DNA of 64,000 nt from a virus, in IMG/VR virus record IMGVR_UViG_3300036768_000279, positions 83,928 through 147,927 of that record. The stretch is one strand, 5' to 3'. Both the position numbers and the translations under genes were made by a program. Below are positions 57,818-63,781 of this stretch, one piece after another. A model generated the notes under the pieces. The model ran no database searches and was not told where the DNA came from. It saw nothing but the letters and a program-made list of their open reading frames with translations. Each line of letters opens with the position of its first letter. The stretch's first letter is position 1.

Positions 57818-57949
57818 GACCTGAGAATAGATTAGACAGATATTTTTGCTGCTCTACCACTAAGCTACGGCTAGCTTACGCTCGCCGGGAGGATTCGAAC
57901 CTCCGCCCCGCTCCTTAACAGGGAAGTAACTGTCTGGACCGCATCAGGC
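57818..57949 (-). ncRNA. yrlA: YrlA-type Y RNA with permuted tRNA module
   Basis: CCTGA-TGCG..GTTACTTC, T arm GGAGG-TTCGAAT-CCTCC, loop-closed acceptor-like stem, D arm GCTTAGTGGTAGAGC, ..TATTC-TCAGG. Confidence 0.85.
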
Positions 57950-57968
57950 CGTTCGTTTATGTTTTGAG

Positions 57969-58052
57969 TGACTGAGAATTGTGGACTCGGATATGTGGTT
58001 CCCCACGTTTCACATCCCTTGTGAAGTAGCCGAGTTATCCCCGCGTCAGTCA
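57969..58052 (-). ncRNA. Y-RNA-like RNA 3
   Basis: TGACTGA-CGCG...GCTACTTC...AATTC-TCAGTCA; extended -10 TGGCATAAT immediately upstream. Confidence 0.7.
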
Positions 58053-58058
58053 GTACCA

Positions 58059-58289
58059 TTATGCCACATTGTCAGGAGCTTGGCAGCCATTTTCTTGGAT
58101 CTTCCTGTAAGTGCCTGGGAGACTGTAACTTAGGACGATACGACCCAAAATGTAGGCAGTGGTCAGTGCCGCAATATGGTATCCAAAGAGCACGAAAATG
58201 AAGAAAGCAATGGGCAGCAGTACGCCAACCATTGCAAGCACGACTAGCCCCGTCGCTAGACTAAGAAGATGGTAGTGCCACGCTTTCAT
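58059..58289 (-). CDS. Small membrane protein
   Basis: Two hydrophobic segments. Confidence 0.55.
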   Translation of the reverse strand: MKAWHYHLLSLATGLVVLAMVGVLLPIAFFIFVLFGYHIAALTTAYILGRIVLSYSLPGTYRKIQENGCQAPDNVA

Positions 58290-60869: not shown

Positions 60870-61032
60870 GCCTCTAACGGGGCGGATCTTTGAATCGGCA
60901 GGAGTCTAGCTAAGGCTCGTAAGATAGGTGTCCGCAAGCCCCAGTTCGGCAGCTTGGCACAATCTAGCAAATTGTGGTGTTTTTGAGGCGTATGCCAGAA
61001 CACCTGTTGACCTATCCTGCTTTTCGAGGTTT
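60870..61032 (+). ncRNA. Putative structured RNA
   Basis: GCAGGA/TCCTGC, ATAGG/CCTAT, CACAAT/ATTGTG, GGTGTT/AACACC; no ORF. Confidence 0.45.
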
Positions 61033-61035
61033 TGC

Positions 61036-61063
61036 TTGACATTGGGTGGAAACGTGATATGAT
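61036..61063 (+). promoter_or_regulatory. sigma70 promoter for tRNA-Met
   Basis: TTGACA-16-TATGAT. Confidence 0.8.
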
Positions 61064-61146
61064 GTAGTTGCCAGACTGATGACTCGAAAGAGTCACCACC
61101 CTACTATGCGTTAGCCGATAGCGACAAATCGGTGACAATCCAGGAC

Positions 61147-61371: not shown

Positions 61372-61489
61372 ATTGGGCAAGGTGTAAAGAAGCGGACAAA
61401 GCCTGATCGCCGTCAATATCGATCAGCCACAAAACCGCAGCCAGTGACGGCTGGAAACGGCTCAATAAAACACTAGAGTCGTGCCCAAT
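61372..61489 (+). ncRNA. Putative multi-stem RNA
   Basis: ATTGGGCA/TGCCCAAT closing GTGT/ACAC, GCGG/CCGC, CTGATCG/CGATCAG; followed by a terminator. Confidence 0.45.
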
Positions 61490-61490
61490 C

Positions 61491-61533
61491 GAGGCACCGG
61501 GGGGGTTGATCCTTCGGTGTCTCTTTTCTTTTT
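61491..61533 (+). terminator. Rho-independent terminator
   Basis: GAGGCACCGGGGG...CCTTCGGTGTCTC followed by TTTTCTTTTT. Confidence 0.8.
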
Positions 61534-61599
61534 CAAGCACCGGGGGTCTTACAACAGTCGTTTTCAAACACCCATCAAACAAGTATGGGGGTGGTTTTG

Positions 61600-61719
61600 A
61601 AAAGTCTAGCGACCTGTAGTTTCCCCTTACTATGGTTTCCTAAAATTCTAGCGACACGGGATTTCCCCTTACTATAGCCGCCGCCCCAAAATGCTAGCGG
61701 CCTCAGGAATCCCCTTACT
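61600..61719. repeat. Three direct repeats AAAA-NN-CTAGCG-N14-CTTACT (fourth copy at 62050..62081)
   Basis: Copies at 61600, 61642 and 61688 with invariant 14-nt spacing. Confidence 0.85.
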
Positions 61720-61816
61720 TACCCCCCCCCCGAGAACACAGAGCAAACTGGGGCCGGGCGTGCTACACTCCGCGTCTCCTTCGGGAGGAGCATCTCGTTC
61801 GCAATGCGTACACCAG

Positions 61817-61845
61817 AGTGTACTACGTTTTCAAGCCCTTGTCAA
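61817..61845 (-). promoter_or_regulatory. sigma70 promoter (ncRNA unit A)
   Basis: TTGACA-17-TACACT. Confidence 0.8.
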
Positions 61846-62179
61846 GTGGCGTTCTTGAAAAGAAAGGCCGATTCCAAATTATGTGGCGGCCCGATTCGTG
61901 ACCGGGCATCTCGGAAATGGAGAAATCAGCACGGCTCTGGACATACCGGGATATCGGCAAAGCGGCTTGAAAAACCCATTTGATTTCGCTTTTCAAACGA
62001 GCACAAAAATCTCAGGTGCTTGGTTCAATACCTTACTTAGCGTTTTCTGAAAGTGCCAGCGGCCTCAGCAACTCGCTTACTTGTGCTTTTCAAGTGTAGG
62101 AAGACTGGGAACCGGGCGTACTCAACCTCTTCCCCTTAGAGGGAGCACCACCCGGTTGCCGACGCAGTGCATTCACACT

Positions 62180-62207
62180 AGCGTATCATGTTCTTGAAAG
62201 TTGTCAA
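62180..62207 (-). promoter_or_regulatory. sigma70 promoter (ncRNA unit B)
   Basis: TTGACA-16-TACGCT. Confidence 0.7.
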
Positions 62208-62390
62208 ACAAGAACTGGACGATCCTACTCAGAACTCACTTATCGGCAACGGGAAACCATTGCTGGTCTACTTGGACTTTTGCTCGAAAGAGTTACGTTC
62301 CGTAACCGCTAAACAGCGTCGGCGGTGATCGTCCGAACCGGACTTGCCTTATGAATCTTGTTCCTTTGGCGACTCCAGTTCTTGTTTGAC
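62203..62390 (-). ncRNA. Putative 188-nt RNA closed by a perfect 17-bp helix (unit C)
   Basis: GTCAAACAAGAACTGGA / TCCAGTTCTTGTTTGAC; 5' end coincides with the expected TSS. Confidence 0.65.
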
Positions 62391-62395
62391 GCCAG

Positions 62396-62424
62396 AGGAT
62401 ACTATGTTTTCAAGCCTCTGTCAA
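62396..62424 (-). promoter_or_regulatory. sigma70 promoter (unit C)
   Basis: TTGACA-17-TATCCT. Confidence 0.75.
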
Positions 62425-62439
62425 GAAGAATCTTGAAAA

Positions 62440-62735
62440 TGTGCGGACCCCTCCCCGCGTCAAGCCTGTGCCGCATAGCCCTTCGGCATAGCGTTGAGGC
62501 TTTCCAACAATAACAGCTTGTTGCGGTTCCGCAACAGAGAGGTAGTCTTTGCCGTCTCTCCGGCTGTCAAGAGGGATTCCAGGTTCTTCTGCACTTCCTG
62601 GATCCCGGAACCAACCCATCGTGCAGGGTCGGTTTCTTTCCAGATTCCCTCGCGGTTCACTGGCGATAGTCAAGGACTGTTAGGAGCACAAAACGCCCCG
62701 GATTGCTCCGGGGGAGACCGGCTCGCCTTGACAGC
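62440..62735 (-). ncRNA. Putative ~300-nt structured RNA (unit D)
   Basis: Many nested stems and a possible kissing loop; promoter TTGACT-16-TACTAT at 62739..62766. Confidence 0.6.
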
Positions 62736-62875
62736 TACATAGTACACGGTGGACGCTTAGAGTCAAGCGATACGCTCGAAAAAAAAATCCACCGTTTCGT
62801 TTGCCATTCCCCAGAAACGGCGTATTCTATGGTGTCTCGCCAATCGGGGCGAACATACAACCAACAGGAAACGAC

Positions 62876-63781
62876 ATGACTACGACCCTCCAGAAGTTCC
62901 TTGAGGACAATGGTATGCACTACGATGTCATCAAGGAACAGGCGACCCGCACGAACAGCAAGGGTGAGATCGTGCCGATCGCAGGCCAATTCCACCTCAT
63001 TCGCTCGATCGATGAGGAAGTCATCAGCCCGTCCACCGTGTCCGAACGCTACTCGGTCACGAACCCCACGAAGATGTGCGACCCGCTCGCTCCGCTCGTG
63101 GCCGAAGGCTGGATCACCCCGGATAAGGGCTACCTGTTCAAGCGTGGGAGCTATGAGGTCGTTTCATTCGAAATGAACGCCTCGGAACTCGAAGACGGCG
63201 GCAAGATCGCGGGCGAAGAGTGGAAGCACTGGGTCAGTCTCCACAACCACCAGGGCGGTGGCGGGGGCCTCAAGGGCTCGATCACCAGCTTCCGCGTGGT
63301 CTGTGCCAACACGGCGGCGGCGGCGGCTCGCGAATCGTCCTTCACGATCCGTCACACGGGCGACATCGACGCCAATTACAAGTGGGCGATCGACCGCTGG
63401 CAGAAGCTCAAGGACAGCATCAAGAAGCTGTCGGAACGTATGACGGTCTTCGCGAATCTCAAGCTCTCGGCGAGCGAAGCAGAAGAGGCTCTTTACAAGC
63501 TCTACGATGTCGAGGGTCTGGCGGCGACTGAAATCAGCACCCGCACGGCGAACGAACTCGAATTCGCGATGACGGAATTCGCGAACCCCCGCCGGGGCAC
63601 GTTCGGCAAGACCGGCCTGGATCTCTTCAATGCGATCACGGCCACGAACTCGCACTATACCCCGAAGAATTCGAAGGAGTCGAGCGAGAAGCGTCTCGCG
63701 AGCATCTACGACGCCAACGGCACGCGGTTCAAGCTGGAAAGCGACGCCGTGAGCCTGCTGGAAGAGATGGCGGGCCTCTGA
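62876..63781 (+). CDS. DUF932/DUF945-family early protein
   Basis: RVVCANT, FTIRHTG, DLFNAIT; AGGA RBS; promoter TTGCCA-16-TATTCT at 62801..62828. Confidence 0.8.
   Translation: MTTTLQKFLEDNGMHYDVIKEQATRTNSKGEIVPIAGQFHLIRSIDEEVISPSTVSERYSVTNPTKMCDPLAPLVAEGWITPDKGYLFKRGSYEVVSFEMNASELEDGGKIAGEEWKHWVSLHNHQGGGGGLKGSITSFRVVCANTAAAAARESSFTIRHTGDIDANYKWAIDRWQKLKDSIKKLSERMTVFANLKLSASEAEEALYKLYDVEGLAATEISTRTANELEFAMTEFANPRRGTFGKTGLDLFNAITATNSHYTPKNSKESSEKRLASIYDANGTRFKLESDAVSLLEEMAGL

Follow-up and report, generated by a model that had tools for sequence, protein, structure and literature searches.

The stretch of DNA analysed here (referred to as the window; 64,000 nucleotides) comprises the final 64 kb of a 147,927-bp virus record in IMG/VR. 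The record's 127-bp terminal repeat is an assembly overlap, so that the genome map is circular. Two sequencing runs are listed as containing the element described below, both of DNA from microbial-mat metagenomes and probably the source samples; no RNA run is among them. Genes to the left of about 62.8 kb point leftward and those to its right point rightward, and the region between 60.8 and 62.8 kb is the switch point both for gene orientation and for the cumulative GC skew. The ORF list holds no credible ORF for this region, while its minus strand carries a chain of sigma70-type promoters, with nine promoter-like sites in a promoter scan where 1.7 would be expected. The opposite (plus) strand has a tRNA-Met gene; ahead of it lies a terminator-like site on the minus strand (61453-61438), and the minus-strand transcription unit apparently terminates before any gene. 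To the right, the first leftward promoter stands back to back with a plus-strand DUF932 gene (62876-63781), and a gene for a TROVE/Ro60 protein with a vWA domain is found together with a YrlA-like RNA about 4.7 kb to the left of the region. The element studied here is housed in an early operon that is ORF-free, has four promoters, and consists of exchangeable RNA cassettes.

Promoters and RNA units of the early region

The first leftward promoter (Table 1) lies directly upstream of the RNA considered here. The block around it, 62761-62879, is 76-79% identical in the two relatives L034 and L035, and its context is common to all relatives that we read. A terminator scan found no strong intrinsic terminators between the units of the array, so read-through from one unit into the next is to be expected. 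The motif TTGAC occurs in five copies within ~370 bp, and operator-like inverted octamers surround the promoters: the pair TTTTCAAG / CTTGAAAA flanks the -35 of several array promoters (62396-62439 and 61817-61862; in L034, 3362-3410 on the minus strand) and is found in the corresponding promoter of L034/L035, while the promoter in the window retains only a diverged upstream half (TTTTCGAG). Judged by its sequence, the pair looks like an operator-type site for a dimeric regulator.

The flanking DNA of relatives was fetched via homologues of the DUF932 protein at 83-42% identity. All relatives share with the window, by blastn, the part between 60.8 and 61.56 kb, the tRNA, and RNAs of the type of units A and B. 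These two units (61600-61720 and 62050-62160, minus strand) are the conserved part of the array, with homologues in all relatives (L013:5520-5640, L017:920-1000), and carry 42-46-nt repeats of the type AGUAAGGG...GCUAGA-UUUU; we presume a resemblance to the repeated RNAs of type III antitoxins, which has no support from Rfam. Two noncoding blocks, 60885-61100 and 61383-61560, are 70-79% conserved in every relative, more than the neighbouring genes; the second holds convergent terminator-like hairpins (61491-61523 on the plus strand, 61453-61438 on the minus strand). Unit C (62203-62390, minus strand) has as its clamp a perfect 17-bp helix whose arms are 154 nt apart (z = -4.1) and has no DNA homologue among the relatives fetched, L034/L035 included. 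An HNH endonuclease gene has inserted into the cassette array of one relative (L014:4947-5465, plus strand), which would fit a locus that serves as a hot spot of insertion and exchange.

A structured RNA without a conserved reading frame

The minus strand of 62440-62735 had been described before as one ~300-nt RNA, unit D, clamped by a 9-bp helix and containing a candidate kissing-loop pseudoknot. A direct check of the sequence found all of the listed pairings on that strand and in place: the 9-bp arms (62735-62727 with 62571-62563), the GAGGGA/UCCCUC helix within them, hairpin 1 (62634-62609, loop of 8 nt), hairpin 2 (62601-62579, loop of 13 nt), the complementary loop segments UGCAC and GUGCA (6 bp if the last C of the stem is counted), and, further 3', another hairpin and the UGCCG/CGGCA pairing. 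Transcription usually starts 6-8 nt past the -10 element, and we therefore put the start near 62732, in which case the RNA may lack the first three bases of the 9-bp arm. The 5' arm of this helix also has a rival 7-bp partner at 62675-62669; the energies of the proximal and distal pairings are nearly equal, and the proximal one is chosen in the minimum free energy (MFE) structure of a slightly longer construct.

Table 1. Features at the start of the minus-strand early unit, in window coordinates.
Feature	Position	Strand	Basis or remark
First sigma70-type promoter	62739..62766	-	TTGACT (-35), 16-nt spacer, TACTAT (-10); promoter scan
E*, diverged copy of the E-type cassette	62665..62735	-	Alignment A5 with the E cassettes of L034, L018 and L019
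Terminator-like hairpin in E* (7 bp, GCAA loop), then U-run	62686..62713 (hairpin 62713-62696)	-	Terminator scan
Relic promoter	62650..62673	-	-35 TTGACT kept (62673-62668), no usable -10; A5 aligns it with the live promoter after the E cassette of L034
87-aa ORF (TTG start), not considered a gene	62410..62673	-	ORF list
Core of D proper, three-way junction	62571..62651	-	Single-sequence fold; homologous to L034/L035
P1	62651-62646 / 62576-62571	-	Fold of the D core
S1, 5' strand (UGCAC, loop of hairpin 1)	62621..62625	-	Aligns with CGCAC of L034/L035
S2 (hairpin 2)	62601-62597 / 62583-62579	-	Fold of the D core
S1, 3' strand (GUGCA, 13-nt loop of hairpin 2)	62590..62594	-	Aligns with GUGCG of L034/L035
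Distal 3' arm of the 9-bp closing helix	62563..62571	-	Within a 28-nt stretch missing from L034/L035; without comparative support
3' domain of D	62440..62562	-	74% identical to L034; helix variation all by G-U wobble in the minus-strand sense
Parts of the 3' domain	hairpin 62536-62519; conserved block 62489-62477; invariant 14-nt element 62464-62451; final hairpin 62458-62443	-	

The stretch folds more stably than expected by chance. Against dinucleotide shuffles the MFE has z = -3.5 for 62430-62740 (311 nt) and z = -4.0 for 62563-62735 (173 nt, the same on both strands), compared to a background of 109 coding windows of the same size with a mean z of -0.68 (sd 1.2, minimum -3.3). The modules into which we divide it below (E*, D core and D proper; Table 1) are each by themselves significantly structured beyond this coding background: E*, folded alone as 62732-62665, has z = -3.8; the D core alone (62651-62571) has -34.3 kcal/mol and z = -3.7, with 0 of 300 shuffles as stable; and D proper alone has z = -3.8. 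A 5-nt Watson-Crick match between two hairpin loops, as seen here, occurs in 1.5% of shuffles and in 2.3% of natural 173-nt windows; taken on its own the match is suggestive, and after scanning 64 kb no longer so.

The stretch overlaps an open frame of 87 codons, and a protein encoded there is an explanation to which we give practically no credence. The frame starts with TTG without a ribosome-binding site, and its product has no homologue among 5.8 billion predicted proteins, nor by tblastn in JGI metagenomes, IMG/VR and GTDB genomes. The homologous RNA regions of L034 and L035 hold unrelated short ORFs and do not keep the frame, so that conservation at the protein level, which would have spoken against an RNA, is not seen. 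The view of a noncoding, promoter-driven and structured RNA is thus supported by the promoter, the lack of a conserved ORF and folding z-scores of -3.5 to -4.0.

Two cassettes behind one promoter

On the evidence of the alignments, the stretch is best described as two small noncoding RNA cassettes fused behind one early promoter, and not as the single module proposed in the preliminary description. The 5' arm of the supposed 9-bp clamp (62735-62727) belongs to a separate cassette, E*, whose closing helix as supported by homology is the 7-bp pairing of 62732-62726 with 62675-62669. Cassettes of this E type, encoding a ~70-nt RNA, occur in L018, L019, L021, L034 and L035 (copies at L018:3075-3166, L019:1735-1826, L034:2969-3060 and L035:3076-3167, all on the minus strand), and their RNAalifold consensus contains six compensatory pairs, closing helix included. 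In this helix the 5' end of the RNA pairs with the -35 region of the next promoter. No Rfam family matches the E-type cassette at E<=1. A loop segment of the E-type RNA may pair downstream as a pseudoknot (GCCACA/UGUGGC in L018, GAUCC/GGAUC in L034).

In the window, the internal loop of the cassette has shrunk to a tetraloop, and the hairpin is followed by a U-run that is missing from the corresponding part of the other E cassettes and accounts for the terminator-like call; this hairpin might serve as an attenuator ahead of D proper. The live promoter that follows the E cassette in L034 aligns with a relic in the window, where the promoter scan makes no call. Three further leads were rejected, none being conserved or well formed: a boxA-like string at 62688-62678, loops resembling SD sequences, and -10 partners of the internal TTGAC copies.

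Homologues of D proper

Homologues of the second cassette, D proper, were found in only two IMG/VR phages (L034/L037 and L035/L036) among about a dozen relatives. Their RNA has the same position as in the window, directly after the first promoter beside DUF932. The two are 95% identical to each other in the D RNA; identity to the window is 68% over the whole RNA and 74% in the 3' domain, and the blastn match of L034/L035 covers 62443-62545 at 74%. The neighbouring DUF932 gene is only 60% identical to that of the window at the nucleotide level (42-43% as protein), meaning that D proper is better conserved in nucleotides than the gene adjacent to it. In about ten distinct relatives, with DUF932 proteins 46-83% identical, nothing matches units C and D, while the promoter and the A/B units are kept; the place behind the conserved first promoter is taken in these phages by different short structured segments and, in a single case, by a small ORF.

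A covariance model (R1) built from the three D sequences scores 160 bits for the window, 219 for L037 and 150 for L036; all three are training sequences, and the scores thus speak for consistency and not for independent detection. The model finds no further copy of D in 22 other loci. Pattern and pseudo-protein scans of IMG/VR, JGI metagenomes and GTDB genomes gave real D matches only in L034/L035; 12 GTDB matches to a 20-nt pattern were rejected because their number is that expected by chance and the covariance model matches the pattern alone, and two of them, read directly, are coding sequence. By DNA similarity, GenBank phages gave tRNA matches only and plasmids none, and the relative G001 has no DNA match to D. 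The phage's own genome contains no paralogue of D, and complementarity to it is limited to chance 11-13-mers. A search for close relatives with the DUF932 protein of the window returned none, and one with that of L034 returned only L034/L035. Rfam has no match to D, either for the whole window at the gathering threshold or for 60-64 kb at E<=10 (4227 families); the latter search yielded only the tRNA and one chance match at E=3.3.

The pseudoknot core

In L034/L035, the 5' start as judged by promoter spacing falls right at the 6-bp closing helix. Then follow an A-rich stretch, the segment CGCAC, and a hairpin (CCUAGG/CUUAGG) whose loop consists of GUGCG and an A-rich run; further 3' come a hairpin homologous to 62536-62519, a middle module that L035 has lost, and the invariant 14-nt element with its terminal 5-bp hairpin. 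From 62651 on, the window has the same order of elements. In L034/L035 the two short segments form an ordinary nested intramolecular helix, S1, with pairing probabilities of 0.86-0.99, while in the window their counterparts lie in the two hairpin loops: the 5' strand is unpaired with a probability of 0.98-1.0 in the nested ensemble, and the 3' strand is mostly unpaired, with values mostly above 0.9. The S1 duplex is worth about -9 to -10 kcal/mol.

Between UGCAC/GUGCA in the window and CGCAC/GUGCG in L034/L035 there is one compensatory change, U-A versus C-G, the only double change in this helix, and RNAalifold predicts S1 unprompted from the alignment alone (CG:2 UA:1). S2 is CCAGG/CCUGG in the window versus CCUAGG/CUUAGG in L034/L035, with one base pair inserted on both strands and one wobble; the helix in the window is one pair shorter and has G-C where L034/L035 have G-U. 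The conservation of S2 was read by eye, as MAFFT did not place its strands in common columns. Since the S1 segments are conserved in the homologues, with a compensatory change between them, the loop-loop pairing put forward in the preliminary description is probably real, although with three sequences the shuffle control of covariation (163/500) is not significant. Four of the five S1 positions are invariant, and the retained complementarity could therefore reflect conserved primary sequence. The proposed tertiary pairing is thus plausible and now has its first comparative support, while the boundaries of the unit and its closing helix had been misjudged.

The complementary loops themselves are present in this phage, but kissing loops do not appear to be the conserved form. 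Hairpin 1, a near-perfect helix of 9 bp, owes its 3' arm to a 16-nt insertion behind the first S1 segment and is absent from the homologues; the form common to all three copies would therefore be an H-type pseudoknot composed of S1, S2 and an A-rich loop, with a kissing-loop version seen in this phage alone. The loop in question (62589-62584 in the window) directly follows the 3' strand of S1 and is purine- and A-rich in 3/3 copies. The junction hairpins of the window are unequal in length, which may hinder contact between their loops. D-type RNAs are a small phage-restricted family with three known copies in two lineages, a count that omits the contigs of DUF932 homologues P0005, P0009, P0011 and P0013-P0035, including the clade nearest to L034. 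The members have in common the S1+S2 pseudoknot core, a hairpin, the invariant 14-nt element with its terminal hairpin, and the position beside DUF932.

Every one-sided change in the consensus helices (6/6) is, in the minus-strand sense, a G-U wobble, and this favours selection acting on RNA over selection acting on DNA. This bears on the view that the 2-kb ORF-free region is a control region or replication origin, with its inverted repeats and TTGAC copies serving as protein-binding sites or being relic promoters. Equal folding z-scores on both strands, the crowding of TTGAC copies and inverted octamers, and the location at the switch point of gene orientation and GC skew would all fit such a DNA element. 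On the other strand, or as DNA, the one-sided changes would however be A-C mismatches; S1 has a compensatory change, and promoters point into the element. We thus consider a purely DNA-level function quite unlikely.

Decay of D, with its structure inherited rather than selected, is in our view improbable to a similar degree. The relic -35 without a -10 at 62673-62650, the U-run gained in E* ahead of it, the fact that most relatives dispense with D, and the loss of the middle of the 3' domain in L035 point in this direction, and with no live promoter and a terminator-like hairpin upstream, D could indeed be poorly expressed or decaying in this phage. A decaying element would however not be expected to fold as D proper does (z = -3.8), to keep S1 and S2 with compensating differences, to gain a near-perfect 9-bp hairpin, or to exceed the adjacent gene in nucleotide conservation.

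Proposed role of the composite RNA

We tentatively prefer a composite early RNA, in which D proper is made by read-through, folds compactly around its pseudoknot core and acts in trans as an accessory RNA; we regard this as quite possible, if short of probable. The stretch would be the first ~300 nt of the ORF-free, multi-promoter early unit of this 148-kb uncultivated phage. The first cassette (62735-62665) would have its 5' end clamped to 62675-62669 and would have acquired the terminator-like hairpin here. The second, D proper (62651-62440, ~210 nt), would have lost its own promoter and be transcribed by read-through from 62732. Its core would consist of S1, S2 and an A-rich third loop, after which the 3' domain would run to the invariant 14-nt element and the final hairpin; in this phage, the extra hairpin would offer the 5' strand of S1 in its loop and so create kissing loops inside a three-way junction. 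D would thereby adopt a compact tertiary structure and work as a free or processed RNA, in trans and early, most likely as a protein-binding or decoy RNA against a host factor. We favour a role in trans because the slot varies between close relatives behind a conserved promoter, D is rare, and the unit seems to end before any gene; the decoy function is something that we infer from this context.

A cis-acting part of a long early transcript is the alternative that we take to be possible yet rather unlikely: the hairpins and clamps would then be processing sites (RNase III or other), attenuators, or insulators between tandem early promoters, and the RNA would have no role as a free molecule. 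A precedent exists in phage T7, whose tandem early promoters with RNase III sites after them are a classical arrangement. Read-through is expected in the array, which lacks strong intrinsic terminators between its units; a terminator-like hairpin stands 20-50 nt past the start; and the clamps of the E-type cassettes and of unit C take their 3' arm from the -35 of the next promoter, so that they exist in read-through RNA only. Against this, the unit ends at a terminator-like site before any ORF, leaving no mRNA to process or regulate; most relatives lack D while keeping the promoters and the downstream units, and the array does not therefore need it; and a conserved pseudoknot core exceeds what a processing site requires.

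D is a small new family within the structured RNAs of phages and no member of a curated family, and what is more unusual about the locus is its array of exchangeable, promoter-driven RNA cassettes, of which D is one. To our knowledge, functions have been assigned to few of the structured RNAs of phages, most of which came to light family by family. In the present case, phages of ~150 kb, uncultivated and from soil, groundwater and mats, devote a promoter-rich, ORF-free early operon to variable small structured RNAs. Should host factors be the targets of these RNAs, the locus would be the RNA counterpart of the variable early islands of anti-defence genes, and a compact source of new RNA folds. 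We speculate further, and regard it as unlikely in this full form, that the 2 kb constitute an 'RNA cassette array' in which clamped RNAs behind near-consensus host promoters are swapped like anti-defence genes, with D as a pseudoknotted decoy of a host RNA-binding defence or takeover target, and with the clamps at the -35 elements doubling as processing sites and recombination joints.

Comparison with known RNAs

The topology of D, in the order S1, 5' strand of S2, 3' strand of S1, A-rich loop and 3' strand of S2, is found in all three copies and is that of H-type pseudoknots with an A-rich third loop, such as the frameshift signals of luteoviruses, telomerase RNA, and the SAM-II and preQ1-II aptamers, which likewise have stems of 5-6 bp. 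D differs from these in having neither a frame to shift nor a regulated gene, in an inter-stem loop of 2-5 nt instead of 0-1, in presenting a strand within a hairpin loop (in this phage), and in matching no curated family.

Pseudoknots are common in small ribozymes and aptamers, and the three-way junction of the window, in which P1 closes two side-by-side hairpins with complementary loops, resembles the architecture of the purine riboswitch. A self-cleaving ribozyme or ligand-binding aptamer built on this junction is nonetheless very unlikely. The arms of D are unequal and hairpin 1 is not conserved, being missing in the homologues; D has no expression platform or downstream gene, and none of the 4227 Rfam families matches at E<=10. 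Specifically, no aptamer model of the known riboswitch classes in Rfam matches, and no ORF lies downstream before 61453-61438; the small self-cleaving ribozymes (hammerhead, twister, pistol, hatchet, HDV-like) have no match in the region of the window at E<=10 or in L034/L035 at E<=1.

The phi29 pRNA is a phage RNA of similar size that is also transcribed from an early promoter close to a genome landmark and has short complementary loops. These pair between molecules and so build the ring that sits on the packaging motor in phages of ~20 kb, whereas the homologues of D pair the same segments intramolecularly, in an ordinary helix, and the genome of 147,927 bp is not phi29-like. Ornate RNAs associated with phages are also reported to form homo-oligomers (PMC12286853). 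The large GOLLD and ROOL RNAs (over 500 nt) have no model match here, D proper being about 210 nt. Although D has two complementary loops, is encoded by a phage and is transcribed early, we consider an RNA that multimerises through intermolecular loop-loop pairing, in the manner of pRNA or of ROOL/GOLLD, highly improbable. The comparisons with ribozymes, aptamers and pRNA drawn in the preliminary description are thus not upheld, given the intramolecular pairing in homologues, the missing regulated gene, and the Rfam result.

A further Y-RNA-like ligand of the phage's own Ro60 (TROVE) protein, encoded 4.7 kb away, is likewise highly improbable, even though the same phage encodes TROVE+vWA with a YrlA-like RNA. 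Y RNAs are modular and carry a GNCGAA(N)G-type motif near the 5' end (PMC4201824); modularity and clamped ends are shared by D. In addition, an 11-nt string of its invariant 3' element, UGACGCGGGGA (62462-62452, minus strand), is identical to part of the 5' frame of a Y-like RNA (58048-58038, minus strand), an identity with a chance expectation of about 0.02. In the window (57830-58060, minus strand) and in relatives (L012:18100-18450, plus strand; L015:640-970, minus strand), the TROVE gene is immediately preceded by two or three Y-RNA-like genes; their shared frame is a stem, GA-NGCGG, a stem, GUUACUUC ... AUUCUC, and a stem, and one of them includes a tRNA-like module in permuted form. The YrlA-like RNA at 57830-57936 scores 30.4 bits (E = 8e-4), below the Rfam gathering score of 69. 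D by contrast has no tRNA-like module; the GNCGAA-type motif is absent from it, and the GA-NGCGG ... GUUACUUC ... AUUCUC frame of this group's Y RNAs is absent from its 5' end and core. At E<=10 the YrlA model (RF02553) has no match between 60000 and 64000. D and the TROVE gene share a strand but are 4.7-4.9 kb apart, outside the ~4 kb within which YrlA RNAs co-occur with Ro60/TROVE genes, and D is present in a phage (G002, 96% complete) that has no TROVE gene.

For the locus as a whole, the closest parallels are early regions of well-studied phages: tandem early promoters with RNase III hairpins are known from T7 (A1-A3 and R0.3), and regulatory RNAs embedded in leaders from P4 (CI) and P1 (c4). 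As in these, serial strong host-type promoters of the array are followed by structured untranslated RNA. Unlike them, the array is a unit without any ORF that appears to end before genes are reached, and its segments are cassettes that differ between close relatives.
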